Notes: generated from the letters alone by a model not told the origin. Numbered from the stretch's first letter, positions 48,253 to 63,382 are shown. The stretch: 64,000 bases of DNA from Cyanobacteriota bacterium (GCA_046047935.1 JBJOHA010000058.1:16601-80600), one strand, 5' to 3'. A program made the numbers and translations.

Positions 48253-49122
48253 TTGCCCGCGCCATCCTCACCCTCTTTGCTCCTGCCCCCGGCGGGCCCT
48301 GTCGCCGTGATGGGGGTGCTCAACCTCACGCCGGATTCCTTCAGCGACGGCGGCCGTCTGCCCACCGTCGAGGCGGCCGTGGAGCAAGCGGGGCGCCTGT
48401 TGAAGCAAGGCGCGGCGGTGTTGGATCTGGGAGCCCAGAGCACCCGGCCGGGGGCGGAGACGGTGGGGGTGGCGACCGAGCTGGATCGCCTGCTCCCCCC
48501 CCTGCGGGCGATCCGCGCCGCCTGGCCCGAGGCCGTGTTGTCGATCGACACCTTTCATGCGGCCGTGGCGGAGGCGGCCCTGGCGGAGGGCGCGAGCTGG
48601 ATCAATGACGTGCGCGGCGCCAACGTCACGCCAACGGCAGCGGGGGGGAGCCTCCGAGATCCGGCGATGCTGCCCCTCGCCGCCGCCGCCGGTTGCCCTG
48701 TGGTGTTGACCCACAGCCGCGGAGACAGCGCCACGATGGATGAGCTCGCCCGCTACGAGGATGTGGTCGTGGAGGTGCGGCGGGAGTTGGCGGCGGCGAC
48801 AGCGCTGGCCCTGGAGGCGGGCGTGCGGCTGGAGCGGATTCTTTGGGATCCCGGCCTGGGCTTTGCCAAAACCACCGCGCAAAACCTGGAGCTGCTGCGC
48901 CGCCTTCCGGAGCTGGTGGCCGCCGGTCATCCCGTGTTGATCGGCCCGTCCCGCAAACGGTTCATCGGCGCGGTGCTGCATGAGCCGCGGCCAAGGGCGC
49001 GGCTTTGGGGCACGGCAGCGGTTTGCGCCCTGGCGGCGACGCGCGGGGCGGCGGTGTTGCGCGTGCATGATGTGGGTCCGATCGTGCAGGTGGCGCGGAT
49101 GGCTGAGGCGGTGGGGAGCTGA
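48253..49122 (+). CDS. folP: Dihydropteroate synthase
   Basis: MGVLNLTPDSFSDGG, DLGAQSTRPG, SIDT, DPGLGFAK, SRKRF, RVHDV. Confidence 0.96.
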   Translation: MPAPSSPSLLLPPAGPVAVMGVLNLTPDSFSDGGRLPTVEAAVEQAGRLLKQGAAVLDLGAQSTRPGAETVGVATELDRLLPPLRAIRAAWPEAVLSIDTFHAAVAEAALAEGASWINDVRGANVTPTAAGGSLRDPAMLPLAAAAGCPVVLTHSRGDSATMDELARYEDVVVEVRRELAAATALALEAGVRLERILWDPGLGFAKTTAQNLELLRRLPELVAAGHPVLIGPSRKRFIGAVLHEPRPRARLWGTAAVCALAATRGAAVLRVHDVGPIVQVARMAEAVGS

Positions 49123-50411
49123 TGCGCTTCCTTCACACCTCCGACTGGCATCTGGGTCGCTCGTTCCATGGAGCCTCCCTGCTGGAGGAGCAGGCGGCGG
49201 CCCTGGAGCGCATCGTCGCGCTGGCACGGGAGGCGGAGGTGGATGCGGTGTTGATCGCGGGCGACATCTACGACCGGGCCATCCCTCCCGCCGAAGCGGT
49301 GCGGCTGTTCAACGACACCCTGGCCGCGCTGCGCGCCACAGGGGCGGCGGTGGTGGCGATCGCGGGCAACCACGACTCCCATGTGCGGGTGTCGGTGTAT
49401 GACCCCTTGCTGTCGGCCCTGGGGGTGACGATCCGCGGAGACGTGGGCCGAGCGGATCAACCGGTGCTCGTGACGCCCCGACGGGGCGGGGGGCCGGTGG
49501 CGATCTACCCGGTGCCCTACCTGGATCCGGCGGTGGATGGGGCAGCCCTGGAGGAGCCGGAGCGGGCAGGAGCCAAGGGGGAGGCGGGAGCCGAGGGCCA
49601 GGGCCTGGGATCCCCGTTCGTCGGGGGACGGCTGCGCCACGAGGAGGTGACCCGATGGGCCCTGGCGCGGGTGCGCCGCGACTGGAGCCAGCGGCCGGGG
49701 CACCGCGCGATCGTCGTCGCCCATGGCTTTGTGGCGGGAGGCGTGCCCTCGGAGTCGGAGCGGGAGCTGACGGTGGGCAATGTGGAGCGGGTGAGCGTGG
49801 AGGCGTTCGCCGGTTTCGACGCGGTGGCACTCGGCCACCTCCATCGGCCCCAGGAGCTCGCGGGCCCGCGGCTGGCCTACTGCGGCTCTCCCCTCCCTTA
49901 CTCCTTCTCCGAGGAGGGGCAGCGCAAGGAGGTGCGGCTGGTCGAGCTGGCGGCCAACGGGGAGCCGGTGGTGGAGCGGGTGGCGCTGGAGGTGGGGCGG
50001 CCCCTGGCGACGGTGGAGGGCGCGATCGAGGACTTGTTGCGCGATCCCGCCCTGGCGGCGGCGGAAAGCGCGCGGGTGCGGGTGATCCTCACCGATGAAA
50101 CGCTGCCCCTGCAGGCCAAGGCGCGCCTGCAGCGGCGCTTCCCCCACATCGCCGAGCTGCGGCACCGCCCCCCCCTGGCGGATCGTCAACCCGATCGCGA
50201 CCGGCAGCGGCGGGCGCGGCAAGCCTCATCGCCCCTGGATCTGCTGACCGCCTTCTACGCCGAGCAGCAAGGGCGCCCCGCCTCGCCCGAGGAGGAGCGT
50301 TTGCTGCGCCGCGCCCTGGAGGTGGCCAGCGGGCGGGAGGCCGCCGGCGGAACAGGCGGGCGGATGAGTGGGCCCGAGCCGGAGCAGGACAGAGCGGTGA
50401 ACGCCCCATGA
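49122..50411 (+). CDS. sbcD: SbcD nuclease subunit
   Basis: LHTSDWHLG, AGDIYD, GNHDS, LGHLH, YCGSP. Confidence 0.95.
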   Translation: MRFLHTSDWHLGRSFHGASLLEEQAAALERIVALAREAEVDAVLIAGDIYDRAIPPAEAVRLFNDTLAALRATGAAVVAIAGNHDSHVRVSVYDPLLSALGVTIRGDVGRADQPVLVTPRRGGGPVAIYPVPYLDPAVDGAALEEPERAGAKGEAGAEGQGLGSPFVGGRLRHEEVTRWALARVRRDWSQRPGHRAIVVAHGFVAGGVPSESERELTVGNVERVSVEAFAGFDAVALGHLHRPQELAGPRLAYCGSPLPYSFSEEGQRKEVRLVELAANGEPVVERVALEVGRPLATVEGAIEDLLRDPALAAAESARVRVILTDETLPLQAKARLQRRFPHIAELRHRPPLADRQPDRDRQRRARQASSPLDLLTAFYAEQQGRPASPEEERLLRRALEVASGREAAGGTGGRMSGPEPEQDRAVNAP

Positions 50412-53400
50412 GGCCCCGTCTCTTGACCATCGAGGCCTTCGGCCCCTACGCCGATCCCGTGCGGATCCCCTTTGACGGGCTGAGCCAGGAAGGCGTCTAT
50501 CTCATTCATGGCCGCACCGGCGCCGGCAAGACCTTCCTCCTTGACGCCCTCTGCTTCGCCCTGTATGGCGAGGTGTCAGGCGACCGCAATCTGAAGGGTT
50601 TGCGCTCGGATCACGCCCCCCCCGGGGCTGTGCCGCGGGTGGGACTGGAGTTTTCCTGCGGCGAGGCCCTCTACCTGGTGGAGCGCTCCCCCGCCCACAG
50701 CGCTCCGCGCAGCCGGGGCGGAGGCACCACGGACAAGGCGGCGAATGCGGTTCTGTTTCGCCTCCGCGGCGGCGAGCGGCAGCCGATCGCCAGCCGCACC
50801 ACCGAGGTCACCCGGGAGGTGGAGGGCCTGATCGGACTGAACGCCAGCCAGTTTCGCCAGGTGATCCTGCTGCCGCAGGGTCGATTCGCCGAGGTGCTGC
50901 GCGCGAAGGCGGAAGAGCGGGAAACGCTCCTGCGCACCCTGTTCAACACCGGTGTGTTCGAGCGGGCGGCGTTCTGGTTGGAGGAGCGGGCCAAGGCGGC
51001 CCGGTTGCGGGCCCAGGCCACGAGCCAGGCTCAGGAGGTGTTGCGCCAGCAGGCGGAGCGGGAATGGAGTCCCTGGCGCGGACCGGAGGACCCCGCGGAG
51101 GTGCCGGCTGATCAGGCCGGCCTCGACCGTCTGCGGGAGCGCTTGGAGGTGGTGGTGGCGGAGGCCGACACCCGGTTGGCGGCGGCGAGCGACGCGTTGA
51201 CGGCGGCGGAGCGGGCGCGGCAGGCCACCCTCGCCCTGGCCGATCGCTGGCAACGGCGCTCGACGGCGCTGGCGCGCTTCCAGGAGTTGGAGGGCAAGGC
51301 GGAGGTGGTGGAGAGCTATCGCCAGCGGCTGCGGCGGGCGGGGCAGGCCGAGGGGCTGCGGCCGAGCCTGGAGGCGGAGGCGGCGGCCCGAGGGGCCTTG
51401 GCGGTGGAGGTGGAGCGCGTGAGCGGGCTCCTGCGCCAGGCGCGTCACGCCCGAGAGACGGCTCCTGCCCTGCCAGGGGCTGTCAGTGACCTGCCCCTGG
51501 ACGCCCTGCCCGCGTCGGAGGCGCTGAACGAGGCGAGCCAGGCCTTGGCGGCCCGGCGCGCGGAGGTGAAGGCCCTGGTGGGCTTGGCGGAGGAGGGCGC
51601 CAAGGCCCGGGCGAGGGAGCGGCAGGCCCGAGAGGAGGTGGAGCGCCTGGAGGCGGAGCGCCTGCGGGAGGGCGCCGCCATGGGCACCCGGGAACGGGAG
51701 CGTCAGGCCAACGCGGAGGCCGTGGTGGCCGCGCGCACGGCGCGGGACCAGCTCGATGGCCTGCGCCGCGCCGCCGAGGAGGCCCGACGGCAGGCGGACG
51801 CGGTGGCGGCCCTTCCCGCCCTGCGAGACAAGGCGTCAGCGGCCCATGCCGCCCGGAACCAGGCGGACGACCGCCGCAACCAGGCCAGCGCGGCCCTGCT
51901 CGCCCTGCGGCACGCCCAGCTCGATGGCATGACGAGCCGCTTGGCGGCCGGCCTCGTGGAGGGTGTCCCCTGCCCGGTCTGCGGCTCCAGCCAGCACCCT
52001 GCCCCCGCCAAGGGCGACACGGGGGCGCCCACCCCTGACGAGGCCACCCTCCAGGCGGCGGAAGCGGCCCTCGCCACCGCTGGCCGCGAGGCGCAACAAG
52101 CGGCCGCGACGCTGGCGGCGACGGAAGCGGAGCTGAAGGCGATGGTGGAGAAGGCGGGGGCTGCGGCAACGGAACCCGACGACGCCCGCGTCACGGCGGA
52201 GCAGGCCGTCGCGGCCCTGGAGCGGGCACGGATCGCCGCCGCCTCGGTGGACACCCTGGAAAAGGCGCTCGCGGCGCAGGATCAAGCGCTGCGGCACCTG
52301 GGGGAGAGACTGCGCCAGCTGGACACGGCGATCGCCGTCGGGCGAGAAGCGGGCCACGAGGCCGGGGAGAGGGCGCGGACGCTGGAGGTGGAGATCGGCC
52401 GGGCGTTGGGGGAGGGGGTCGATCCGCGCGCCGTTCTGGCGGGGTTCACCCCTGTGGAGCGCGCCCTGAGCGCCCTGACGGCGTGCTGGCAGAGCCACAA
52501 CCAGGCCCTCCATCGACAGGAGATCTGCGCGGCGCGGTTGCGGCAAGACCTGGCGGCCTCGGAGTTCACCAGCGTCGAGGCGGCGGCGGCGGCGATGGTG
52601 GAGGCCAGCGTGCGGGAGCGATGGGCGGAGCGCATCGCGGCCTATGAGCGGGAGCTGAACGAATGGCGCGGCGTCCTGGCGTCGGAGGATCTGGCCAACC
52701 TGCCGGAGACCTGTCCTGACGTGGCTGCGGCTGAAGCGGCCTGGAACGCCGCCGATGCGACGCGCTTGGGAGCCCTGGAGCGCCTCAGCCAGGCGCGCGG
52801 CAGCCTGGCCGACCTCGCCCGGCTCAGCGCGGAACATCGTCAGGGCGCCGGGCTCCTCGCCCGGCAACGGGAGGAGGCTCAACAGCTGACCGGCGTGGCC
52901 GAGCGCTGCCTGGGCAAATCGCCGCCCTACATCTCTCTCCAGCGTTGGGTGCTCGCCGCCTATCTGGAGGAGATCTGCGGTCACGCGAACCTGCGGCTCG
53001 ACCTGATGACCTCCGGTCGCTATCAACTGCGGCTGAGCGAGGAGGGTGGGCGCGGCGGTCGACACGCGGGCCTGGGATTGAAGGTGCTCGATGCGTTCAC
53101 CGGAGAGGAGCGGGAGGTGAACAGCCTCTCGGGTGGAGAGACGTTCCAGGCCTCCTTGGCCCTGGCCCTGGGGGTGGCCGACACGGTGGAGGCCCGCTCC
53201 GGCGGGGTGCACCTGGAGGCGCTGTTCATCGATGAGGGCTTCGGCACTCTGGATCCCGACAACCTGCAGCTGGCGATGGATGAACTCGACCGACTGCGGG
53301 AGGGAGGACGGCTGGTCGGCATCATCAGCCACGTGGGTGCCCTCAAGGAGCGCATTCACAGCGGTATCGAGGTTCGCGCCACCGAGCGTGGGTCGACGGC

Positions 53401-53428
53401 GCACGTTGTGCGCACGGCCATGGAATGA
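50408..53428 (+). CDS. sbcC: SbcC SMC-like ATPase
   Basis: GRTGAGKT, LPQG Q-loop, CPVCG zinc hook, LSGGE, LFIDEGFG, IISH. Confidence 0.95.
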   Translation: MRPRLLTIEAFGPYADPVRIPFDGLSQEGVYLIHGRTGAGKTFLLDALCFALYGEVSGDRNLKGLRSDHAPPGAVPRVGLEFSCGEALYLVERSPAHSAPRSRGGGTTDKAANAVLFRLRGGERQPIASRTTEVTREVEGLIGLNASQFRQVILLPQGRFAEVLRAKAEERETLLRTLFNTGVFERAAFWLEERAKAARLRAQATSQAQEVLRQQAEREWSPWRGPEDPAEVPADQAGLDRLRERLEVVVAEADTRLAAASDALTAAERARQATLALADRWQRRSTALARFQELEGKAEVVESYRQRLRRAGQAEGLRPSLEAEAAARGALAVEVERVSGLLRQARHARETAPALPGAVSDLPLDALPASEALNEASQALAARRAEVKALVGLAEEGAKARARERQAREEVERLEAERLREGAAMGTRERERQANAEAVVAARTARDQLDGLRRAAEEARRQADAVAALPALRDKASAAHAARNQADDRRNQASAALLALRHAQLDGMTSRLAAGLVEGVPCPVCGSSQHPAPAKGDTGAPTPDEATLQAAEAALATAGREAQQAAATLAATEAELKAMVEKAGAAATEPDDARVTAEQAVAALERARIAAASVDTLEKALAAQDQALRHLGERLRQLDTAIAVGREAGHEAGERARTLEVEIGRALGEGVDPRAVLAGFTPVERALSALTACWQSHNQALHRQEICAARLRQDLAASEFTSVEAAAAAMVEASVRERWAERIAAYERELNEWRGVLASEDLANLPETCPDVAAAEAAWNAADATRLGALERLSQARGSLADLARLSAEHRQGAGLLARQREEAQQLTGVAERCLGKSPPYISLQRWVLAAYLEEICGHANLRLDLMTSGRYQLRLSEEGGRGGRHAGLGLKVLDAFTGEEREVNSLSGGETFQASLALALGVADTVEARSGGVHLEALFIDEGFGTLDPDNLQLAMDELDRLREGGRLVGIISHVGALKERIHSGIEVRATERGSTAHVVRTAME

Positions 53429-53445
53429 GCCACGGTGAGCCGCCT

Positions 53446-53505
53446 CGGCGGGAACGGCGACGGCGGGAACGGCGACGGCAGGAACGACGACGGCAGGAAC
53501 GACGA
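53446..53505. repeat. Four tandem 15-bp units (CGGCRGGAACGRCGA)
   Basis: Units at 53446, 53461, 53476, 53491, just after the sbcC stop. Confidence 0.85.
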
Positions 53506-53817
53506 CGAAGAGCGCGGTCAAGAGTCCGCGACGGGGTTCGGGGCCAGCGCCATGATGCGGGCACTCTCGCTGTCCTCCGAACAACAGCTGTCGGCGTCAT
53601 CCGCCTCGAATAGAGCATGGGCGGCCTCAATCCTGTCGAATGTTCCTCCGGCGGAATGTTCCCCCGGCGGAATGTTTGTTCTGCATGGCCAGCGTGAGCA
53701 TGGCCAGCGTGACCACCATCAGCCTTCGTGATCATGTAGCGCGTTGTCGCCAGGGTGTTGGCAAGACCATGGCATGGAACAATGCGGGCCCAGGCCGCAT
53801 TTGCCGAGTGGAGAGCT

Positions 53818-54045
53818 TCAGGCCTCAAGAGCCTGTTTGAGGTGGAGGTAAAGATGTTCAGGATTCTTATACCGATGCGGCAAGACATGATGGAGTGCCA
53901 GCAAGCGATGCCAGCAGACACTGCGTTTGATGTTGGCGATGGTTTTCCCCTCGCGAATCAAGATTCGCATCGACTTGCAATACAACGCATGGCTGGTCTC
54001 CAACTCAGCCATCGTGAGCGTGGTTGTGAAGGTTGCCTGATCCAT
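53818..54045 (-). CDS. DUF3136-like protein
   Basis: LT.AELE...LYCK..R.L..EG...I.R.VCW..L..L...LP.RYK.P pattern. Confidence 0.8.
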   Translation of the reverse strand: MDQATFTTTLTMAELETSHALYCKSMRILIREGKTIANIKRSVCWHRLLALHHVLPHRYKNPEHLYLHLKQALEA

Positions 54046-54121
54046 GACAGAGTCGCGACGGGCGTCTGGCTGAAAGGGTCAGGCAACTCCCGTCTTGGCG
54101 CAATCCCCATTTGGGGACAGC

Positions 54122-54340
54122 TCAGTCGTCATAGACCAGGCAGTTCATGTTGGATGGATTCAGATCGCAGAACACCTCCAGAGGCGAAGGGGCCTCCGTC
54201 TCTTCAGGATGGCGCTGCTGATACTGCTCCAACTCCTGGATGCGCTGTTCCAGTTTGCGAGCAATGGCTTGATCTCCCTTGGCCTGGGCGTCTTGAAGCT
54301 CAGAGCGGTAGGTCTGAAGCTGGTCTTGGATGCTGGACAT
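54122..54340 (-). CDS. cp12: CP12 protein, picocyanobacterial type lacking the N-terminal Cys pair
   Basis: C-terminal PSPLEVFCDLNPSNMNCLVYDD; start ATG 54340. Confidence 0.88.
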   Translation of the reverse strand: MSSIQDQLQTYRSELQDAQAKGDQAIARKLEQRIQELEQYQQRHPEETEAPSPLEVFCDLNPSNMNCLVYDD

Positions 54341-54514
54341 GATCGAAAGAGCAACAGTGCACAAGTCAGGCCGAATTTAACCCTGAGACTGATCCAACCA
54401 GCTCAAGGTCTGGCACACAGAAAACAGGCGTTGTGTCGTTCGAACCTGCCATGACGAATGGCGCTCTCTGGCTCGTTATGTTGGGCGGGCTCTTGACGTG
54501 TTCAGGCAACTTTC

Positions 54515-54904
54515 ATGGCGGATGCTCCCTATCTCGTGGCGTTGGCGTTTTTAGACATCGGGGGCAAGCGAGCGATGCCGCTGGCCGGCCGATCGCTCTC
54601 CGCGGCGGCCGCAGAGGCCGCCGATCCGGGCGAGGCGGGCCGCACCCTGGCCCTGGAACTCTTGCTTCGTCTTTGGCAACGCACGGATGAAGGGCCCATC
54701 CAACGGGCCATGGGCAACAACAGCCTGCTGCTGGTTGAACTGCCGTTGGAGGTCATGACGGAACAGCTTCCCCTGCTCAAAGCCAGCTGGATCGCCAATG
54801 GTGATCACGAGGACGTCCTGCGGAAGCTGCAGGAGCTGACACGTCGCGGCTGGAGGCTTCTGTTCAGCAAATACGAACCGATCAGCTATGAGCCATGGCC
54901 GTGA
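54515..54904 (+). CDS. Hypothetical protein
   Basis: 129-aa ORF MADAPYLVALA...ALELLLRLWQ with protein-like composition. Confidence 0.7.
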   Translation: MADAPYLVALAFLDIGGKRAMPLAGRSLSAAAAEAADPGEAGRTLALELLLRLWQRTDEGPIQRAMGNNSLLLVELPLEVMTEQLPLLKASWIANGDHEDVLRKLQELTRRGWRLLFSKYEPISYEPWP

Positions 54905-55192
54905 TCAGCCCCTGTCTGGGGCGGCCCTGGCTGCGCCCCTGTTGGCTCTGACGCTTCCTGGACAGGTTGCGATTGAATGCGCTGCACCCGCTCGCCCACG
55001 CCCCATGCATAGGGTGTAAAAACTGAGCGGAGCAGAGCGATGACACCCAAGCACCTTCCATGGACAGAAGCCGGTTGCAGGCCGCGCCCGGGGCCAACAC
55101 CGACAACCGCCAACGCGGGAGGGTTTCCCCTCCACAGGCTGCCCAACATTTGTTGCTCCTCAGGCACCTGCAGCGAAGTGGAGTACTGGCCC

Positions 55193-55453
55193 ATGAACCA
55201 TCCCCAGGAGGGCTGGTTGCAATTGGATCAAGCGGATCGTGCTGTCCGGCCAGTGGATCTCTTCGCCTTCAGCAGCCAGGGCGTCGGCGTCATCCTCAGG
55301 GCTGACGTTCCTCTTGAACAGGGAGCTCGTGGTCTGTTGATGACGCCGGCCCATGGAGCGGGGCTTGGCCAACGCCTTGTGCGGGTGTGTTGGCATCGCC
55401 CGCATCCAAGCGATCCGGAACGCCAATGTGCTGGATTGCGCTTTGCTTCGTAG
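55193..55453 (+). CDS. Small PilZ-like beta-barrel protein
   Basis: FSSQGVGV, VRVCW, AGLRF resemble a PilZ barrel; start ATG 55193. Confidence 0.45.
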   Translation: MNHPQEGWLQLDQADRAVRPVDLFAFSSQGVGVILRADVPLEQGARGLLMTPAHGAGLGQRLVRVCWHRPHPSDPERQCAGLRFAS

Positions 55454-55537
55454 GAGCAGGCCTCTGTCTCGCGTCCAGTCCCTGGGCCGGCCAACTTCAT
55501 TGGCGCGGAACAGCCCACAGATTTTCGGGACTTCATT

Positions 55538-56335
55538 CTAGGCGCCAATGCTCAGAGGCAGGAAGAGCCCTTGATCGACCAACAGGGCATACTGCTTGTG
55601 GATCTCACGCACTCTTTGAGCAGATGTTGTAAGCCAGCCGGCCTCATAGTTATGTCGCTGGGCGGTCTCACTAAAGTTGGCGCTTGTCACCAGGGCCTTG
55701 GCTTCCGGCGTTTCCGCATCAGCAATCACTACCTTGGCATGTTGGTAGCAGCGCTCGCTTGATCCATTCATCAGGCGGCTGTCGACATAGGCATGGGGCT
55801 TGGCTGGCCAGGGCCAGACGTCCTGGTTGAACCATGATGAGATTGTCGCCAGCGGATCAGCGCCCAGGCGATCCTCAATCTGCTTGGGGTGAAAGAACAG
55901 GTCGACCCGGTTCAGCTGAGCGTGGGCCAGGCGATCAGCAATGGAGGCAAACAAGTCGCGAAACTCGCTGCTGAGCCCGATGTTGTAAGTGGCGATCAAC
56001 AGGCTGCAGCGCGCTTCGCTGATCAGTTGATCCACCGTGGCAAACGTGTCGGCGGTTTTGGCATGAAGAGGATCCGGGCCAGACCAGACAAAGCTCCAGG
56101 CGTTGCGTTCCTTTTGGAGAGCGTCTTGGGCATCGGCGAGGCGATCCAGCAGCAACGCCATCAAGCGGGGGTGGGCCTCCTCTCGCACCATCTCCACCAG
56201 CAGAGGTTCCAGTTGCAGGCGGATCGCTTCGCTGTGAGTGGAGAGCAAACCCTGCCAGCTGGTGGGCGTGTAGTTCAGACGCCGGAGATCGGCAGCAACA
56301 GCCCGCAATGTCTGAGCTGGCAGCGTGAGGCTCAT
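55538..56335 (-). CDS. drmC: DISARM phospholipase D-like nuclease
   Basis: Single HKD (HAKVVIAD), TSANFS; ATGA overlap with drmB. Confidence 0.88.
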   Translation of the reverse strand: MSLTLPAQTLRAVAADLRRLNYTPTSWQGLLSTHSEAIRLQLEPLLVEMVREEAHPRLMALLLDRLADAQDALQKERNAWSFVWSGPDPLHAKTADTFATVDQLISEARCSLLIATYNIGLSSEFRDLFASIADRLAHAQLNRVDLFFHPKQIEDRLGADPLATISSWFNQDVWPWPAKPHAYVDSRLMNGSSERCYQHAKVVIADAETPEAKALVTSANFSETAQRHNYEAGWLTTSAQRVREIHKQYALLVDQGLFLPLSIGA

Positions 56336-58230
56336 GCCTTGATGAACTCCCAGAAGGATGGATCGCCAATTTCCGGGCTTGCCGAAACGGTGGGGCTCAC
56401 CAGTGCTCGATCCAGGAACTCATTGCGCATTTCGCAGGAGGTTTCGGCAATGAGCTCGCAGCCATGGCAAGCGGCGCCATGGGTCGGGCGGATGTCGAAG
56501 GGGTGGTTGGGGTCGTGTTCAGAGCAGAAGGGATCATTGCTGCAGAGTTGACCGCGCTCAAATGCTTTCTCCAGGTAAGAGACGATCCGCTTCCCGGCAC
56601 CGACAAGGCCACCCAAGGTGCCCTCTGACCCGGAGCTGCTGGTGAACAGCAGGATGCCGTAGCCAATTTCACTGTTGGCGTAAATCCTCTCGCGGATGGA
56701 GCTGGCTCCATAGCCGCACTCCAGGGCCATTTCGGTGATCAGCAGATGGCTGAGGCTATGGAGCAGGAGGTAAGGAGCTCCAGGGAAGGGGAACTGGGCT
56801 TCGTCGAGGCCGCGGGACGCGAGCCATTCGTTCTCGAAGGCCTTGGTGAACTGGCTGGCGCGCATCACCACCGGATCACTGGCGGCCCAGGCCTTGATCG
56901 TGGCGGGATCGAATTCGATGATGATTCCTTCGCCTTTGTTCTCACTGGTCGGCACCCAGCGCAGATCGTTGGCCAGCGGTGCCCGGCGGTTCACCTTGGT
57001 GGTGTCGATCGGCAGGCCGCCCAGGCTGCTGGTGCGAGCCGTGAAGCGGGTAAATCCCACCAGGGCCTGAACCTCCCGCAGGCGGTGGACCAGCAGCACG
57101 CGCTTGATGGCCTTGCGGAACCAGGCAGGTGCGTTGGGGGGCTGCCACACATCAGCCTCGAACAAGCTCCCCTCGGCTGAGCTGGAGACCCCATCCATCG
57201 GACCGATCAGCAGGGCCAACTCCTCATCCTTGGGTTGGGCGAGCTGACCGGCGGATCCGCCCCTCTGGGCCTCGATCGTCTGCCAGAGGAGGGCTGGATC
57301 CACCCCGGCGAAGGCGCTCTTGAGACGTGGGTTGAACCGGATGGCTGCGGACACATCGGCTTCCGCCTCAATCAAGGCAAGGTCATCCTTGAGTTCGGTG
57401 ACGCGCTTGGCGAGAGAGTTGGCTTCCTCCGGAAGCGAGATCACCGAGATCGTCTCGGTGAAGTAGGCGTTGGTGGCCGAACGCACCAGGAGACGGTTCT
57501 TGGTGGGCTTGCCATCGGTCTGGCACTTTTCGGGATCACGGGTGTTGCGGCCCAGCCAGGGCGTGTTCCCCTGACAGAGTCCCAGAGGACTCATCTCTGT
57601 GACCAGGGCATCGGCAAGCTTGCGGGTGGTCCCGCCTTCCGACTGCACATAGATCTGGGTGAAGTCGTTGCCGGTGCCAGCCTCGAGCAGATAAAGACGC
57701 TCGGTGTTCTTGCAACCGAACTGGCGGAAGCAGAAGTCGCGCCAGCGGATGTCGCTGAGGTGGCCGTGGGGGCAAGCCATCACGAAGCGAACAGGGACCA
57801 GCGGATAGTTGCCTTCGTCGTCTTGATAGGTGCGCCAGTTTGAGATGCAGCCGTCGTTGAAATGCACCAGCGGCCTGGCCCGGCAAGGGATCCCGAAAGC
57901 CAACCGCTCGCTCACCTTCTGAGCCACCGACCACTCCGGGAAGCGCAGCGCCTTGATCGAACCGCTGATGGCCTTGAGCGGATCCACCTCCTTGGGCGGA
58001 GTGCGCAGGTCAACGCGCGCCACCCCGGTGGCCTGCCGCACCAGGTTGAGCAGCCGCGGTTCATGGATCAGATCGCAGCCACGATCATTCCAGAAATCCA
58101 GCCCCCCGATCAACAGCGCGTAGTCGGGCAGATCAACCATCGCCCCGGGACCGTAGAGCTGCAGCACCTGGCTCTGACGGGCCTCGCCGAGGAGAGGGGG
58201 AGCAGCTTTGCGGCGGTTGGAAGGGGGCAT
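56332..58230 (-). CDS. drmB: DISARM DUF1998 protein
   Basis: SQ...YGPGAMVDLP, LLLHSLSHLL, GTLGGL, CSNDPFC, ACHGC, SCE. Confidence 0.9.
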   Translation of the reverse strand: MPPSNRRKAAPPLLGEARQSQVLQLYGPGAMVDLPDYALLIGGLDFWNDRGCDLIHEPRLLNLVRQATGVARVDLRTPPKEVDPLKAISGSIKALRFPEWSVAQKVSERLAFGIPCRARPLVHFNDGCISNWRTYQDDEGNYPLVPVRFVMACPHGHLSDIRWRDFCFRQFGCKNTERLYLLEAGTGNDFTQIYVQSEGGTTRKLADALVTEMSPLGLCQGNTPWLGRNTRDPEKCQTDGKPTKNRLLVRSATNAYFTETISVISLPEEANSLAKRVTELKDDLALIEAEADVSAAIRFNPRLKSAFAGVDPALLWQTIEAQRGGSAGQLAQPKDEELALLIGPMDGVSSSAEGSLFEADVWQPPNAPAWFRKAIKRVLLVHRLREVQALVGFTRFTARTSSLGGLPIDTTKVNRRAPLANDLRWVPTSENKGEGIIIEFDPATIKAWAASDPVVMRASQFTKAFENEWLASRGLDEAQFPFPGAPYLLLHSLSHLLITEMALECGYGASSIRERIYANSEIGYGILLFTSSSGSEGTLGGLVGAGKRIVSYLEKAFERGQLCSNDPFCSEHDPNHPFDIRPTHGAACHGCELIAETSCEMRNEFLDRALVSPTVSASPEIGDPSFWEFIKA

Positions 58231-58250
58231 GGGGGTGATGGCTGGCGGGC

Positions 58251-61200
58251 TCAGTCGTCGGCGGTGATCTCTTCCCTGAAATTCACCATCCGGATCGGCG
58301 CGGAGGGTTCCACCTCGCGCAGGCTCCAGTTGGTGGTGAACTGCTTGTAGCCCTCGCCCTTGTAGGTGCTTTCCGTATCCAGAGCCGTGTGAAGCAACCC
58401 CAGGCCTGCACCCTTGTCCTCATGGGTCCAGTACTGGAGCTTCATGTTGTCCTCCTGGGTGAGCTTCCACCAGGCTTCGAGCAGATCGATCACGTGATCG
58501 CGCACGTCGTTGGGGAGGTGTTCGTCGAGGGTGTCATCAGCGGCTCCGGTGGCGATGCAGCGATCCTGAAGCGCTTTGGCGATCTGCGCCTTGATGCGCT
58601 GCAGGGCGTCTGCGGCCATGGCGCCCTTGGCCGGAGCCAGGGCTGGATCGCCGTGGCGAGCCATCGCCACCACCACCCCCGGCAGACCCCGATCAAGGGC
58701 CCGACTGGCGAAGGGGGTGCAACTGGTGGCCTCCACATGGCGGTAGAAGGTCTGGTGCCAGTAGGGGAAGAGCTCGAAATGGGAGCGATCCCTTGGACGG
58801 TTTGGATTGAGCAGCACCAGCACCAGCCCGGGTTTGTTCTGCTCAGGCTTGTCGCTGAGCTGTCGGCCCACACGGCTGGTGGCCTGGATGTATTCCGCGG
58901 CGGTCTTGGGCTGGTTGAGCACCACCATCAAGCCGAGGCGCGAGATGTCGAGGCCCACCGAAATCATGTTGGTGGCCAGCGTCACGTCGAGGTGGTCTTT
59001 GTCGATGTAGGGCTTGGACAGGCGGTCTTTGGTGCTGCTGATCTCGGCGGTGTTGACGCGAGAGGTGAGTTCCTGCGGTTCTTTGGGCCGCTTACGAGAG
59101 GCAAAAGGATTCTCGAAACCCTCCATGGGAAGGGATCGGTTTTTGGCGAATTGCTCCAGCTGGCCGCCGAGCTCGTCTTCCAGGATGCTGCGGGTCACGC
59201 CCAGCTCCTTGAGGTTGGAGAAATAGCCCAGCAGCGTCATGTAGGGGTCGGCCGGGTTGTTGGCGCCCATGGGCTTGTTGTCGTTCCAGGCCTTCTGAGC
59301 CGCAGCCATCAGGCCGAGGTAGGAGCGCAGCAGGACACCTTTCAGATTTCGGCCAGGGGCTGAGAGCCCCACGTAGAGACGAGCTTGGTCTGGATCAGGG
59401 ATCGTGCGGGAGAAGAAGTTGTCATCCCGTTCGGGACCCGGTGGCGGGAAGATCCGAACCTGACTGCGGGCGAACAAGGCCTTGATCTGAGCCTCTGCCC
59501 GGCGCACGGTTGCGGTGGAGGCGATGATCTTGGGAGGGGGTGAGGAGGAGTTTGGCCGCATCAGCCCCTCGATCACCGCTTCATAGAGGCCAGCGAGGGT
59601 GCCAAGGGGACCACTGATCAGGTGCAGTTCGTCCTGGATGACGAGTTCTGGTGGCAGCAGGCGGCCCTGGGGGATCTTGAGGCCACCGGAGGCCTTTTCC
59701 GCCGGCCCCCAGAAACCGGCAGCGCCACTCCCATGGGGCAGCTGATAGGTGCTGACGTTGCCGAAGAGCGCGGATGTTTGCCCGACCCAGGGCAGGGCCG
59801 CGAACTTGTCGACGGTGGCGATCAGGAAGCAGGGCAGGCGGCGGTAGATCTGTTCGTCCACCGCAAGCAGCGGCAAGGGCGTGCCCTTGTGGAAGGGGCA
59901 TGGCCCCATGGGAGCGAAGTCCTGCTTGGCCTCGGGAGAGCGTGGCTCGCGGCAGTAGATCTCGAGGCGATCGGGATGGCGCGGGGGCAGCAGGTGAAAG
60001 CCATCCGGCTGGAGGGGGCGGTTGCACCAGGGGCAGGTTTCGATCGGGATGGGCCGATCGCGCTTGCCTGCTTTCCATTTGGTGAGCACCGCATGGGTGG
60101 ACTGCTGATCGCTGTCGCCCGGCCCGCCGAGCTTGTTGGGGGTGGCGGCCTTCCCGACCCACATGCCGATCTCGAAGGGCCATTCACCCAGCAGGTAGGG
60201 GGCGCTCGTTTCGATGCGCTCCAGGCGCTCGAGCTCGAGGGCACAGATCAAGGTTGCGGCGCGGCCGAGCTGATCGAGGGTGAGCAGCCGCAGGGTGTAG
60301 CGCATCAGGACGGTGATGCCAGCTGACTCGATCCCCGGGCTCAACAAGCGGCGGTGCACCAGCGTGAAGGCGGCCAGGCCGAGGTAGGCCTCCGTTTTGC
60401 CGCCACCAGTGGGGAAGAACAGCAGCTCCACTGTTTCACGATCCAGCCGGCCTTCGGGTGTCTCTGGGGTCGCCAGGCCCGGCAGATTCATCAGCACAAA
60501 GGCCAGCTGAAAGAAGCGCCATTTGGGGATGCGAGTGTTGGGAGCCATGCCGATCTGATCGGGCGGCACCTTCGCAGTGAAGGCGCTGCGCTGACGCTGG
60601 GCCCTTGCCATCACCACGTTCATGGTGCGGAAGGCCTCGCGCACAAGGGGATCAGCCAGCAGCTTGATGCCGTTCTCAATGCGCTTGGCGCAGGCTTCCG
60701 CCTGGGCCCGGAGCTGCTTGGCGGTTTCGTTTTGATCGTTGTCGCTGATGGGGTGTTTGGGTTGCTGGATGATCCAAGCCCGGTAGGCCGTCACCATTGG
60801 CATCAACTCCTGGCCGATGCGTTCGCTGCGGGCCAGATCCGCCAAGGCCTCCATCCCCATGGGCACGTTGGTGCCGGGGGGTGGTTCGGGAAGGGTGCGA
60901 AACACCCGGGCGGTGGGGAGCCAGGTGGTCGTGAGCGTGTGGCAGCGGGCGGGGTTGTCGTCTTGGATGCCTGAGGCGATCACGGCGACGTTGTGGCCGG
61001 TGGCGAAGCAGTAGTCGCGCCGGTATTGAAGAGCGGCGAGGCGTTCATCGGGATCTTTGGCGACCTGCTGCAGCGCATCGCGACGGGGAGGGAAGCCCCG
61101 GGCGCAGTGGAGGCTCAGCTCCACTTGGAAGGCGGAAACCGGATCGCGATAACGGATCTGATTGGTTTTGGGCGGTTCCCGCTTGTTGAGCAGAAAGAGC

Positions 61201-61790
61201 GACACCGACAGCTGATCACTGGGATAGCCGAGGGTGCTGGGGGCAGGGCGAGCGATCCAACGCAGGCAGAGACCTTGAGGGGTGGCCTCCAAGGGGAGGT
61301 CTGGGCTGCTGCCTTGGCCGGGAATGGTGACCGTCACGCTCTGGCGCTGAGGAGTGCGCAGCCAGAGCTTGTCGTCGTCGCCATCGGCTGGGGCTGTGTA
61401 ATCCCCCCAAGAGACCGTGGCTTGGATGGTGGAGCCCCGCTCCAGGATGAAGCTGAGGCCGCAGGAGGAGGTGAACCAACTGCGGCGGGTGTTGGCCTGA
61501 TCGAGGGCATCGTTGGCGTCGTCGTCCTTTTCCTGCTTCTCCAGGCGATGGGTCGCCTCGCTGCTGGGTTCTTCGCCAGCGAGATCCGAGAAGGAGAGTT
61601 GCTCATCTGGTGTGGTGCGGCCAGCTTCCTGCTGGAACACATGGGGCACCAGGAAGCCCGTGGTGTACCAGACCGAGGGCGGCTGGGGCAGGGGCTCATG
61701 GCGACGGGCGACATCGTCCCAGCCGGGGCCGATCAGGTCGCTGTGCAGGGCGGCGACGAGCTGGGAGCGGATGTCAGCGGAGGTGGCCAT
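58251..61790 (-). CDS. drmA: DISARM SF2 helicase
   Basis: PTGGGKTEAYL, QDELH, ASTAT, ATNMISVGLDI, QATSRVGR. Confidence 0.9.
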   Translation of the reverse strand: MATSADIRSQLVAALHSDLIGPGWDDVARRHEPLPQPPSVWYTTGFLVPHVFQQEAGRTTPDEQLSFSDLAGEEPSSEATHRLEKQEKDDDANDALDQANTRRSWFTSSCGLSFILERGSTIQATVSWGDYTAPADGDDDKLWLRTPQRQSVTVTIPGQGSSPDLPLEATPQGLCLRWIARPAPSTLGYPSDQLSVSLFLLNKREPPKTNQIRYRDPVSAFQVELSLHCARGFPPRRDALQQVAKDPDERLAALQYRRDYCFATGHNVAVIASGIQDDNPARCHTLTTTWLPTARVFRTLPEPPPGTNVPMGMEALADLARSERIGQELMPMVTAYRAWIIQQPKHPISDNDQNETAKQLRAQAEACAKRIENGIKLLADPLVREAFRTMNVVMARAQRQRSAFTAKVPPDQIGMAPNTRIPKWRFFQLAFVLMNLPGLATPETPEGRLDRETVELLFFPTGGGKTEAYLGLAAFTLVHRRLLSPGIESAGITVLMRYTLRLLTLDQLGRAATLICALELERLERIETSAPYLLGEWPFEIGMWVGKAATPNKLGGPGDSDQQSTHAVLTKWKAGKRDRPIPIETCPWCNRPLQPDGFHLLPPRHPDRLEIYCREPRSPEAKQDFAPMGPCPFHKGTPLPLLAVDEQIYRRLPCFLIATVDKFAALPWVGQTSALFGNVSTYQLPHGSGAAGFWGPAEKASGGLKIPQGRLLPPELVIQDELHLISGPLGTLAGLYEAVIEGLMRPNSSSPPPKIIASTATVRRAEAQIKALFARSQVRIFPPPGPERDDNFFSRTIPDPDQARLYVGLSAPGRNLKGVLLRSYLGLMAAAQKAWNDNKPMGANNPADPYMTLLGYFSNLKELGVTRSILEDELGGQLEQFAKNRSLPMEGFENPFASRKRPKEPQELTSRVNTAEISSTKDRLSKPYIDKDHLDVTLATNMISVGLDISRLGLMVVLNQPKTAAEYIQATSRVGRQLSDKPEQNKPGLVLVLLNPNRPRDRSHFELFPYWHQTFYRHVEATSCTPFASRALDRGLPGVVVAMARHGDPALAPAKGAMAADALQRIKAQIAKALQDRCIATGAADDTLDEHLPNDVRDHVIDLLEAWWKLTQEDNMKLQYWTHEDKGAGLGLLHTALDTESTYKGEGYKQFTTNWSLREVEPSAPIRMVNFREEITADD

Positions 61791-61793
61791 GGG

Positions 61794-61955
61794 TCAGGGG
61801 AGCTCCCGATCGAGGCGATCGAGCAGCCGACGGCACTGATCGACCAACACAGGCAGATTGCCGTGCTCGTCGAGGCGGATGCCAGCGATCGCCTGGTGGA
61901 TGGCTTGCCCGGCCTCCAGGATGTCGCTCAGGTAGGCCCGGGGGTCACGCTGCAT
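61794..61955 (-). pseudogene. HepT/DUF86 (HEPN) toxin with internal in-frame deletion
   Basis: 53 aa: DUF86-like start MQRDPRAYLSDIL joined to C-terminal-like HGNLPVL; no RX4-6H; overlaps the MNT stop. Confidence 0.7.
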
Positions 61956-62265
61956 CGATCTGCTGCTTGCTGGCCTCGATGCTTTGTTTGATGCAGGGAT
62001 TGCGGACGGCATCGGCCATCACCAGATCGACTTGCGAGGCCAGGGCCAGGCGCAGGTCGTTCAGGAGAGCGAAGCAGGCCTTGTAAAGGCTGCCGGGATC
62101 AAGTGGCAGAAACTCCACCAGCAGGTCGATGTCGCTTTCTCCAGGCCGGTAATCGGGCCTCAGCACCGAGCCGAACACATCCATGCGCGCCACGTGGCGC
62201 CGCCGGCAGGCGTCGGCGATGGCGTCAAGCTGGGGTTGGGGAAGGGGATGAGCCATGGCCTCCAT
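61945..62265 (-). CDS. Minimal nucleotidyltransferase (MntA-like antitoxin)
   Basis: VFGSVLR...SDIDLLVEF, VDLV. Confidence 0.88.
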   Translation of the reverse strand: MEAMAHPLPQPQLDAIADACRRRHVARMDVFGSVLRPDYRPGESDIDLLVEFLPLDPGSLYKACFALLNDLRLALASQVDLVMADAVRNPCIKQSIEASKQQIDAA

Positions 62266-62270
62266 TGTGC

Positions 62271-62771
62271 TCAGGCTTTCAGGGTTGCGGCGATGTCGAC
62301 CAACCGCAGCAGCAGCATGTTGGGGTCGCTGGGCGATGGATCAAAGCCCAGGTGCAGAGAGAACTCCCGTGCCGCTGCCGATGCGGCATGCACCACGAGT
62401 CCGCGCACGCCGATCTGCTCACTGGCCATCCGTACCCGCTCAAAGGCATCGGCCAGAAGGGCGCGGGCGATTCCCTGGCCCTGAAGGCTGCGGCAGACCG
62501 CCAGACGTGCCAGCACCACCACGGGGATCGGATCGGGCATGTTGCGCCGGAAGCGGCCAGGACTGGCGGCTACGGCCACGGCACCGGAGGCCAGGGCCAC
62601 GTAGGCCTTCACCGCGCCATCGACACAGCAGACCACAAACGTGCGTGTGGCGCCGCTGCGCTGGTTGCCCAGGGCCCGTTGCTGAAGCCACCGGTTGAGG
62701 GAGTCGTCCCCGCAGTCAAACCCTGCGGTGCTGTGGCTTTCTGCCAGAGGTTGCGGTGCTTGCAGCCTCAT
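62271..62771 (-). CDS. GNAT toxin, AtaT/TacT/KacT family
   Basis: FDCG...LNRWL, RNMPDPIPVVVLARLAV, QGQGIA, LVVHA. Confidence 0.88.
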   Translation of the reverse strand: MRLQAPQPLAESHSTAGFDCGDDSLNRWLQQRALGNQRSGATRTFVVCCVDGAVKAYVALASGAVAVAASPGRFRRNMPDPIPVVVLARLAVCRSLQGQGIARALLADAFERVRMASEQIGVRGLVVHAASAAAREFSLHLGFDPSPSDPNMLLLRLVDIAATLKA

Positions 62772-63043
62772 CCGGCCTGCCAGGGCCTGGGGGCAGCCAT
62801 GGTGCGCCGAAGTCGCTCATTCGGATTGGCCGGAGCATCGAGCCGGCGGCGGAATGCCTCGAAGGCCTCTGGTTCGATGGCAGACCAGGCCTGCTCCACC
62901 AGAAGCTCCTGGGCTGCAGCCCGAGCCGCCTTCAGCACGAAATCGGTCCGGGTCAGTCCTGAGGCGTTAACAGCGCGATCGATCAGCTCCTGATCGCCAG
63001 GAGTCACGCGCAGATTCCAGCTGAGCCGAGGGGTGACGGCCAT
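62768..63043 (-). CDS. DUF1778 RHH antitoxin
   Basis: NLRV...LIDRA...RTDFVL.AA..AA, LDAP..PNERL; ATGA overlap with the GNAT gene. Confidence 0.9.
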   Translation of the reverse strand: MAVTPRLSWNLRVTPGDQELIDRAVNASGLTRTDFVLKAARAAAQELLVEQAWSAIEPEAFEAFRRRLDAPANPNERLRRTMAAPRPWQAG

Positions 63044-63082
63044 GGTTGCACATCGGTTCTTGCCTCATCCTACTTAGATTGG

Positions 63083-63095
63083 TAGACGGCGTCTA
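63083..63095. promoter_or_regulatory. Possible operator palindrome upstream of the antitoxin
   Basis: TAGAC-GGC-GTCTA, 40 bp upstream of the antitoxin ATG. Confidence 0.3.
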
Positions 63096-63382
63096 TCAGC
63101 CCTAGACGTTGCTGGTGGGAGTATCCAGCCGGCAGTGGCTTTGCCTTGCGCTTGATCCGCTCCAGGGCCTCCAGCAGGGGGTGAGCAGCAGAAGCAGCTG
63201 CTCGCAGCTGAGCGGTGTCTGGACGGCTGAGCTGGGCATGGCACCAGGCCGAACAATTCGGCATGGAAGGTTCCAGTCGCGCCCGCCTCGGCGGTCGTGG
63301 CCATGGCGATGGCCAAACGAGTGCCTCGAGCACAAAGCCAAACCATCGTCTAATTTGAAGCAAGTTTGAAGTTCATGGACCC

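Follow-up and report, generated by a model that had tools for sequence, protein, structure and literature searches.

The window analysed here, a 64,000-nucleotide stretch of a contig from a Cyanobium-like picocyanobacterium, carries seven tightly packed genes on the minus strand in the order DUF1778, GNAT, MNT, HEPN stub, drmA, drmB and drmC, as the initial annotation had described and as the ORF listing and family scans bear out. A divergent Fic gene, also noted at that stage, lies on the plus strand and runs off the window. The contig continues for 2,058 bases past the window and ends within drmMI; positions above 64,000 are given in window-equivalent numbering on this same contig. The features are as follows.

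55538..56335, minus strand: drmC, PLD-family nuclease, 265 aa, intact
56332..58230, minus strand: drmB, DUF1998/MZB protein, 632 aa, intact
58251..61790, minus strand: drmA, DISARM helicase, 1179 aa, intact
61794..61955, minus strand: HEPN1 stub, HepT/DUF86-type toxin, 53 aa, with an in-frame internal deletion
61945..62265, minus strand: MNT1, MntA-type minimal nucleotidyltransferase antitoxin, 106 aa, intact
62271..62771, minus strand: tacT-like GNAT toxin, 166 aa, intact
62768..63043, minus strand: tacA, DUF1778 antitoxin, 91 aa, intact
63067..63095, minus strand: candidate tacA operator/promoter, a palindrome and a -10-like box, putative
63383..64708, plus strand, past the window edge at 64000: Fic gene, 441 aa
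about 64709-64990, minus strand: MNT3 pseudogene, frameshifted, with a 16-nt tandem duplication
64990-65400, minus strand: HEPN2 pseudogene, with two in-frame TAA codons
65397-65726, minus strand: MNT2, intact
65723-66058 (contig end), minus strand: 3′ end of drmMI, last 111 codons

The three drm genes of the core appear undamaged. DrmA (PADLOC 1.2e-248) carries the Walker A motif GGGKT at 462 and DELH at 720 and is 87-92% identical to the full-length DrmA of Cyanobium and Synechococcus relatives; DrmB (PADLOC 2e-63; Pfam MZB, PF09369) aligns to its relatives over the full length; and DrmC (PADLOC 7.5e-129; Pfam PLDc_2), which equals its relatives in length, has an HxK motif at residue 199 in the stretch HAKVVIAD, matching the pattern HxKxxxxD. 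DrmA, DrmB encoded directly 3′ of drmA, and DrmC, all of which were looked for as members of a class I DISARM system, are therefore present, DrmC being optional for class I function. The class II genes drmE and drmMII (the latter a cytosine-5 methylase) were found on neither side of drmABC when the flanking ORFs of the contig were scanned with Pfam and PADLOC, and none of drmD, drmE, drmMI and drmMII lies inside the window, as had been reported. The overlaps and 3-20 bp gaps first described are likewise borne out, with gaps of 3, 5 and 20 nt and overlaps of 4 to 11 nt when the junctions are read directly: tacA and tacT overlap as ATGA, tacT is followed by MNT1 after 5 nt, MNT1 and the HEPN1 stub overlap by 11 nt, the drmA ATG comes 3 nt after the HEPN1 stop, drmA and drmB are 20 nt apart, and drmB and drmC overlap by 4 nt.

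The genes directly upstream of drmA belong to two toxin–antitoxin (TA) types. TacA (Pfam TacA1, PF08681, 3.3e-19) is encoded directly 5′ of a toxin that matches GNAT Pfam families, carries the acetyl-CoA motif QGQGIA and finds its best PDB matches in TacT-family chains (7AK7, 5.5e-54; 5FVJ, 2.3e-37), with further matches to KacT and AtaT-type N-acetyltransferase chains; the pair is therefore a type II TA of the TacAT (DUF1778-GNAT) kind, and the RHH-type antitoxin gene overlapping its toxin gene, with a palindrome upstream, adds to the resemblance. MNT1 matches NTP_transf_2 (PF01909, 1e-8) and the PADLOC family PDC-S09 (6.5e-25), has a GSx12DxD motif, and has the MntA antitoxin as its top NCBIfam match, with a score under that model's cut-off. 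As in MntA-HepT (type VII) systems, this MNT gene with its GSxnDxD motif, which MNT2 shares, precedes a DUF86 HEPN gene with stop and start overlapping. The HEPN1 stub, however, keeps only about 25 residues at either terminus, the roughly 65 between them being gone, and has lost the RX4-6H motif that reads RNLLTH in full-length relatives (118 aa; loci L038 and L044). A 72-aa "HEPN" ORF at 61794-62012 was rejected because it starts out of frame within MNT1 and has no family match of its own, the true stub being 61794-61955.

Beyond the tacA intergenic region, the Fic protein (Pfam Fic, PF02661, 1.6e-18) has the active-site motif HPFCDGNGRTAR at residue 272 and the inhibitory motif SSQMEG at residue 134, and this combination of HxFx(D/E)GNGRxxR with an N-terminal (S/T)xxxE(G/N) places it in the class II (self-inhibited) group of Fic/Doc proteins. 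Three other readings in this part of the contig were discarded as genes: orf90 (63074-63346), which has no family match of its own and mirrors conserved DNA upstream of Fic; a 566-aa minus-strand ORF opposite Fic, also without a family match of its own; and orf98, an out-of-frame reading that spans MNT2 and HEPN2. Further upstream, the two TAA codons of HEPN2 replace a Q and a W of its relatives while its RDVIAH motif is kept, and the third MNT/HEPN module, that of MNT3, has no HEPN gene. An exact-protein look-up of MNT2 returned no record. No module retains a HEPN toxin with both an intact ORF and an RX4-6H motif, and in this respect both HepT copies, lacking a functional ORF or motif, differ from those of MntA-HepT systems. 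Of the "two TA pairs" initially proposed, TacAT thus stands, whereas in the MNT/HEPN pair the toxin is dead, and two more decayed MNT/HEPN modules lie beyond the window. All three HepT-type toxins are inactivated, each by a different lesion, and the antitoxins MNT1 and MNT2, TacAT and Fic are intact. Loss of HepT beside surviving antitoxins is the usual decay route of addiction modules, and the locus offers a clean example of it inside a defence island.

The drmMI 3′ end shares contig and strand with drmABC; it lies 1.7 kb outside the window, at an upstream distance of 2.7 kb from tacA and 3.9 kb from drmA, and its stop overlaps the MNT2 start as ATGA. The fragment covers positions 1286-1324 of the 1347 in the PADLOC DrmMI model, is 70-80% identical to the C-termini of the relatives' DrmMI (1387-1392 aa), and stays in frame and homologous up to the final base of the contig. 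Relatives at 87-92% DrmA identity encode full DrmD and full DrmMI (PADLOC E=0 for each), with drmD placed upstream of drmMI, a position that the present contig does not reach. Because the DrmMI C-terminus is on the contig and the closest relatives have complete drmD and drmMI, we assign the system to class I, and we consider the locus likely to represent a class I DISARM in which cargo has become embedded, the TA genes standing between methylase and helicase and not replacing the methylase. The initial annotation had read the TA pairs as present "instead of" the methylase; this was a window-edge artefact, since the contig past the window holds the end of drmMI, and the picture of a DISARM core paired with TA genes in place of its methylase is corrected accordingly. 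It had also suggested that the methylase was either displaced beyond 64000 or lost: displacement holds for the last 111 codons of drmMI, while the rest of drmMI and drmD are not in the assembly. Finally, it had named drmMI/drmD or drmMII/drmE just beyond the window, together with an independent drmA promoter, as what would speak against its reading, and the first half of this is what the contig shows.

Comparison of 33 related loci (the present locus is labelled G000) indicates that the region between drmMI and drmA is far less stable than the drmABC block. The drmMI-to-drmA gap ranges from 39 to 10,250 nt (median 3,211 nt), while drmA-to-drmB spacing stays between -12 and 44 nt and drmB-to-drmC spacing between 0 and 12 nt; drmD and drmMI are 3-6 nt apart in four loci and 0.7-4.7 kb apart in ten. 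Three loci are cargo-free (gaps of 39-195 nt), and in at least 16 of the 33 some cargo in the gap lies on the opposite strand. The cargo varies by locus. Beside MNT/HepT, TacAT and Fic, the families seen in relatives include AbiEi/Eii, GmrSD, AAA_13 and AAA_21 ATPases, a STAND NTPase, a HipA-like protein and a DUF4011 helicase-REase, and the junction gathers a broad sample of defence genes. Even the six loci at or above 90% DrmA identity (L024, L029, L042, L048, L054/L060 and G000) hold five or six different cargo sets. The drmMI–drmA junction, and to a lesser degree the drmD–drmMI junction, is a permissive hot-spot, which in freshwater and symbiotic picocyanobacteria turns over far faster than drmABC. 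Some arrangements do recur: Synechococcus sp. CS-1325 (L039) has tacA-tacT-MNT-HEPN between drmMI and drmA, and MNT-HEPN stands directly 5′ of drmA in Cyanobium sp. ATX 6A2 (L029) and Synechococcus sp. HJ21-Hayes (L044). Inheritance of MNT-HEPN together with drmA was rejected on the ground that the identity of MNT1 does not follow that of DrmA, being 54-61% in loci where DrmA is at 90-92%; similarly, the TacA of L045 is 96.7% identical although DrmA there is at 82%. The cargo thus moves independently of the core genes.

One may postulate that DISARM has functional partners in the TA and Fic genes embedded in it, which would serve as abortive-infection back-ups or as guards set off by phage inhibition of the system, with MNT/HepT as a near-constant accessory of picocyanobacterial DISARM. 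There is precedent for such an arrangement: the anticodon nuclease PrrC, whose gene lies within the EcoprrI type I R-M operon, guards EcoprrI, and here too the modification genes of a methylation-based defence are separated from its restriction or effector genes by a toxin-like gene. In 12 of the 33 loci an MNT gene begins no more than 30 nt from the drmMI stop, and in roughly nine, including the lineage of L065 whose DrmA is only 45% identical, the end of an MNT/HEPN module comes to within some 40 nt of the start of drmA. The tight or overlapping junctions suggest co-expression, and PDC-S09, the family matched by the MNT genes, is a PADLOC defence candidate compiled from embedded genes of BREX, DISARM or type I RM systems. 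Against this, every HepT toxin in this genome is broken, cargo-free loci exist, cargo identity does not follow DrmA identity, and opposite-strand genes are common in the gap; unlike PrrC, moreover, the cargo is variable, partly decayed and drawn from other protein families, and the genes give no evidence of functional coupling. We therefore regard partnership as a rather unlikely explanation.

Another scenario is that drmABC has been orphaned, with drmD and most of drmMI deleted, only a 3′ remnant left, and the block expressed from the TA promoter without a methylase. The remaining roughly 1,280 drmMI codons and a true drmD are indeed absent from the assembly, which is MAG-like, 96% complete and divided into 111 contigs, the shortest of 2,560 nt. 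On this genome the PADLOC DrmD and DrmMI models gave generic matches only, and tblastn with the relatives' full DrmMI and DrmD returned nothing beyond two drmMI fragments, both C-terminal, and a generic SNF2 match that was weak; on contig C6, a type IIG-like methylase (33% identity over about 170 aa) was rejected as DrmMI. A k-mer comparison of the end of the present contig (C58) with all other contig ends found no overlap, the metagenome contigs scanned for the exact contig-end sequence gave no match, and the region past drmD in the closest relative (G009), compared for synteny, revealed no common flanks. Contig C6 of the same genome also holds a decayed second DISARM locus in which some 93 codons of the drmMI 3′ end survive beside TacAT and a drmA 5′ fragment, an instance of this kind of truncation within the genome. 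An orphaned block could be viable, since in Serratia class I DISARM the methylases could be removed without autoimmunity and drmABC alone protected against some phages (bioRxiv 10.1101/2021.12.28.474362). The break in the drmMI fragment, however, is simply the end of the contig, and in an assembly with no contig below 2,560 nt an island piece of 7-8 kb could easily have gone unbinned or been fragmented; drmABC is wholly intact with its catalytic motifs, and all close relatives with enough flank have a complete drmD-drmMI. Orphaning thus seems unlikely to us, and from the relatives an intact methylase module would be expected in this genome. That the TA genes and drmABC were joined chimerically in a metagenome-assembled contig is highly improbable, fragmented and MAG-like though the genome is, given that the same block types occur in the same order in independent assemblies (L039, L029 and L044).

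Under the reading we prefer, a class I DISARM with embedded cargo, the locus would have the order drmD-drmMI followed by drmA-drmB-drmC, and a 3.9-kb stack of small cargo genes would have built up at the drmMI–drmA junction. In transcription order the stack comprises the drmMI 3′ end, MNT2, the HEPN2 and MNT3 pseudogenes, Fic (opposite), tacA, tacT, MNT1 and the HEPN1 stub, followed by drmABC. TA and other defence cassettes may have been exchanged at the junction by recombination while the drmABC block stayed rigid, the homology arms probably being the 3′ end of drmMI and the 5′ end of drmA, and the HepT-type toxins would have been inactivated afterwards. The drmMI tail/MNT start junction GAGCAGATGGGnTTGGGnnnATGAG, read as a probable recombination scar, occurs twice in the present locus, one copy joining the drmMI tail to the HEPN2 pseudogene, and four other loci have this motif where drmMI stops. 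As to where the TA block might otherwise reside, plasmids gave only distant DUF1778-GNAT matches, on proteobacterial plasmids, and phages gave no match.

Fic, in reverse, stands between drmMI and the tacA–drmC block and would interrupt the path of transcription from drmMI to drmA. As the genes from tacA to drmC also overlap or are spaced by 3-20 nt, cotranscription of drmABC with tacAT-MNT1 is suggested, presumably from a promoter in the tacA–Fic intergenic region. No terminator-like site was predicted on the minus strand from tacA to drmC, and a scan for the sigma-70 consensus gave no promoters anywhere in the region. The intergenic region does contain a 13-bp palindrome, TAGACGCCGTCTA, at 63083-63095 (also written as TAGACGnCGTCTA) and a -10-like TAGGAT at 63067-63072, both conserved upstream of tacA, and the palindrome is invariant upstream of tacA in G000, L045 and L039 despite differing surroundings. 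It is a candidate operator, likely bound by TacA in a putative autoregulation, and expression of drmABC from a TA-controlled promoter upstream of tacA is plausible. In a bolder version, the drmMI–drmA junction of picocyanobacterial class I DISARM would be a dedicated cassette-exchange site, where cargo is swapped along with its homology arms, the drmMI 3′ end and roughly the first 250-370 codons of drmA, and this exchange would have brought drmABC under a TacA-controlled promoter and tied DISARM expression to TA state. It draws on three observations: the duplicated drmMI tail/MNT start junction, the free-standing drmMI 3′–TacAT–drmA 5′ unit of contig C6, and mosaic DrmA N-termini in L038, L042 and L051. 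We advance it only tentatively and think it rather unlikely. Since reverse-strand cargo occurs in roughly half the loci, transcription of drmABC must often be separate from that of the methylase, which bears on the balance between self-protection and effector expression in DISARM.

The locus resembles the class I DISARM of Serratia sp. SCBI (bioRxiv 10.1101/2021.12.28.474362) in its DrmA, DUF1998 DrmB and PLD DrmC, in their order and tight packing, and in the C-terminus of a DrmMI-type N6-adenine methylase upstream on the same strand, with an SNF2-type DrmD in relatives. It differs in that drmMI and drmA are set 3.9 kb apart by unrelated cargo, one gene of which is on the reverse strand, and in that the assembly shows neither drmD nor most of drmMI. 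As a difference from known TacAT and MntA-HepT systems, the tacAT and MNT1-HEPN1 modules here are packed against drmA, apparently in its transcription unit. That DISARM often contains embedded genes has already been published (Payne et al. 2024, bioRxiv 10.1101/2024.01.29.577857), and the comparative turnover of the junction is a modest addition. The small defence or TA-type genes nested between DISARM core genes here resemble those of that "guilt by embedding" study, and the PDC-S09 family matched by the MNT genes is a PADLOC candidate defined from embedded genes of this sort. There, 96.7% of embedded genes were co-oriented with the host system and pseudogene-bearing systems were excluded (Payne et al. 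2024), whereas here Fic, and elsewhere other cargo, lies on the opposite strand and several embedded toxins are pseudogenes. The GmrSD-like genes embedded in relatives also have counterparts in that set, where they were reported for Hma and type I RM systems.

The initial annotation had read seven co-directional, tightly packed genes here, and both points held: the ORF list and the Pfam and PADLOC scans place all seven on the - strand, and at every junction in the sequence the neighbouring genes either overlap by 4-11 nt or stand 3-20 nt apart.

62768-63043, - strand: tacA (DUF1778; Pfam TacA1, 3.3e-19)
62271-62771, - strand: tacT-like GNAT gene (GNAT Pfam families; TacT-family PDB chains)
61945-62265, - strand: MNT1, nucleotidyltransferase antitoxin gene (PF01909; PADLOC PDC-S09, 6.5e-25)
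61794-61955, - strand: HEPN1 stub, HepT/DUF86 gene, 53 aa
58251-61790, - strand: drmA (PADLOC DrmA, 1.2e-248)
56332-58230, - strand: drmB (PADLOC DrmB, 2e-63)
55538-56335, - strand: drmC (PADLOC DrmC, 7.5e-129)

The GNAT protein matches the solved TacT-family toxins 7AK7 (5.5e-54) and 5FVJ (2.3e-37). DrmA, DrmB and DrmC have the lengths of their relatives, and the set retains the catalytic motifs GGGKT, DELH and HAKVVIAD. The HEPN1 stub carries an in-frame internal deletion in which ~65 middle residues are gone; the RNLLTH motif of its full-length relatives (118 aa) falls within the deleted part.

The contig (C58) extends just 2,058 b beyond the window end. Upstream of tacA, across a 339-nt intergenic region, the divergent Fic gene was recovered as an opposite-strand ORF, and further genes lie beyond it (L001 coordinates, equal to window coordinates minus 54000).

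L001 9383-10708, opposite strand to tacA: Fic, intact, 441 aa (Pfam Fic, 1.6e-18)
L001 10990-11400: HEPN2, second HepT gene, RDVIAH kept, two in-frame TAA codons
L001 11397-11726: MNT2, intact
L001 11723-12058: drmMI 3' end, final 111 codons of the gene for a DrmMI-type methylase, running off the contig end

In Fic, HPFCDGNGRTAR is the active site and SSQMEG the inhibitory motif. In a third MNT gene, MNT3, a perfect tandem duplication of 16 nt (GAAGATCGAGACCACT x2, L001:10821-10852, window-equivalent 64821-64852) shifts the reading frame, and the gene is truncated by the 3' end of Fic. The two TAA codons of HEPN2 replace the Gln and Trp codons of five relatives.

Class I DISARM is defined by drmABC preceded by drmD and drmMI. 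The drmMI fragment, whose stop overlaps the MNT2 start, aligns to positions 1286-1324 of the 1347-position PADLOC DrmMI model and shares 70-80% identity with the C-terminal ends of the DrmMI proteins (1387-1392 aa) of relatives. Since this DrmMI-type C-terminus lies upstream on the contig, the locus is probably a class I DISARM with TA genes between methylase and helicase. The earlier proposal that TA pairs stand in place of a methylase either displaced or lost thus survives in part: drmMI ends 3,932 nt upstream of drmA, which upholds displacement and removes replacement.

The remaining ~1,280 drmMI codons and the entire drmD were not found in the assembly of this genome (G000). No contig end overlapped that of C58 when all contig ends of the assembly were compared; tblastn with relatives' DrmMI and DrmD picked up in G000 just the C58 fragment, another drmMI C-terminal piece on contig C6 and one weak match of a generic SNF2 kind; PADLOC models for the missing genes gave generic matches only; and the C58 end sequence had no exact match when metagenome contigs were scanned. 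A 7-8 kb island segment with the rest of drmMI and drmD could simply be unbinned, because the assembly, at 96% completeness, comprises 111 contigs, none shorter than 2,560 nt. True loss of drmD and most of drmMI in G000 is the other reading of these searches, and we consider it unlikely; in close relatives both DrmD and DrmMI are complete, each at PADLOC E=0.

By its related loci, the organism belongs among Cyanobium and freshwater Synechococcus picocyanobacteria. The drmMI-drmA gaps were measured in 33 loci from distinct genomes with drmMI stop and drmA start both visible.

Distances between DISARM genes in related loci
drmMI to drmA: 39 to 10,250 nt, median 3,211; at least 681 nt in 30 loci (n = 33)
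drmA to drmB: -12 to 44 nt (n = 38)
drmB to drmC: 0 to 12 nt (n = 24)
drmD to drmMI: 3-6 nt in 4 loci, 0.7-4.7 kb in 10 loci (n = 14)

Cargo in the drmMI-drmA gap includes MNT/HepT pairs, TacAT, Fic, AbiEi/AbiEii, GmrSD, AAA_13 and AAA_21 ATPases, a 1954-aa DUF4011 helicase-REase, a STAND NTPase, an HNH protein, and HipA-like plus HIRAN proteins; no fewer than 16 of these 33 gaps contain cargo on the opposite strand. Even where DrmA is 90% identical or more (L024, L029, L042, L048, L054/L060 and G000), the loci carry different cargo sets; MNT1 identity is merely 54-61% where that of DrmA is 90-92%, and in L045 TacA is 97% identical and DrmA 82%. Across these sequences, core identity and cargo identity are uncoupled. 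Relatives have a second embedding site at the drmD-drmMI junction (L029:3090-4235, L039:1504-2649, L044:2589-4175, L060:2614-3372): the L029 insert encodes a 381-aa Fic protein, the L039 ORF of the same length has a Fic-like tblastn match, and those of L044 and L060 encode proteins without family matches. In the sponge symbiont Candidatus Synechococcus spongiarum SP3 (L050, 4690-12116) DISARM looks degraded, with a frameshift that splits drmA near codon 750 and an insertion of ~2.4 kb between drmA and drmB.

How the cargo arrived may be read from the GAGCAGATGGGnTTGGGnnnATGAG junction, which covers the drmMI tail, stop and MNT start. G000 has two copies of it, one at the true drmMI end and one joined to the end of the HEPN2 pseudogene just before MNT3; four other loci carry the motif at their drmMI stop. 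We infer that the duplicated junction is a recombination scar, in which case MNT3 would once have followed drmMI, and MNT2-HEPN2 would have come in together with a drmMI-tail copy. In several relatives the first 275-372 residues of full-length DrmA are markedly more divergent than the remainder (L038, L042, L051), and three genomes contain drmA 5' fragments that break off near codon 231-254 and run into unrelated downstream flanks (L059:10001-10693, G002:C49:14017-14709, G000:C6:17862-18521); together these suggest a recurrent recombination breakpoint. The divergent N-termini, and a C6 unit in which TacAT is combined with 93 codons of a drmMI 3' end and ~250 codons of a drmA 5' end, fit cassette exchange by homologous recombination, for which the drmMI and drmA ends would serve as arms.

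The most likely driver of tacA-tacT-MNT1-HEPN1-drmABC is plausibly a promoter between tacA and Fic, because Fic lies antisense between drmMI and tacA, the tacA-to-drmC junctions all overlap or span at most 20 nt, and no - strand terminator was predicted from tacA to drmC. A sigma-70 consensus scan of the region found no promoter. Upstream of tacA, a perfect 13-bp palindrome, TAGACGCCGTCTA (63083-63095), is followed by a -10-like TAGGAT; both are kept in three loci with otherwise different flanks, and the palindrome fits a candidate TacA operator. The suggestion in the initial annotation that drmABC may be transcribed from a TA-autoregulated promoter is therefore plausible.

In Serratia class I DISARM, methylase deletion causes no autoimmunity, and drmABC without methylases still protects against some phages (bioRxiv 10.1101/2021.12.28.474362). 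Embedding of genes in DISARM is a known phenomenon, given the report of Payne et al. 2024, in which 96.7% of embedded genes are co-oriented (bioRxiv 10.1101/2024.01.29.577857), and the PDC-S09 (PADLOC) matches of the MNT genes here. The loci described here differ from that report in the large share of reverse-strand cargo, in three stacked MNT/HepT modules with each toxin killed by a different lesion, and in fast cargo turnover between closely related picocyanobacterial loci.

The DISARM island (59-66% G+C) has its boundary at the sbcC end, with no tRNA gene nearby; the housekeeping genes folP, sbcD and sbcC (48253-53428) reach 70-77%, against a genome mean of 64.4%. Between sbcC and drmC lie 2.1 kb of lower G+C (53429-55537; 57-63%) with three ORFs lacking any Pfam, PADLOC or NCBIfam match.

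53755-54342, + strand: ORF
54515-54904, + strand: ORF
55040-55453, + strand: ORF

Homologues of the first two ORFs lie downstream of drmC in L031, and the two may be further uncharacterised island cargo. A second defence island lies outside the window (C6:17862-40555; loci L022 and L023), with a 1389-aa type IIG/PglX-like methylase at the contig end, a 2211-aa DruE/YprA-like helicase and a 738-aa GajB-like helicase, a set that we read, following the 2025 YprA paper, as ARMADA-like. Adjoining it is the decayed DISARM remnant, in which TacA/GNAT genes on the opposite strand accompany the drmMI 3' end and drmA 5' fragment.
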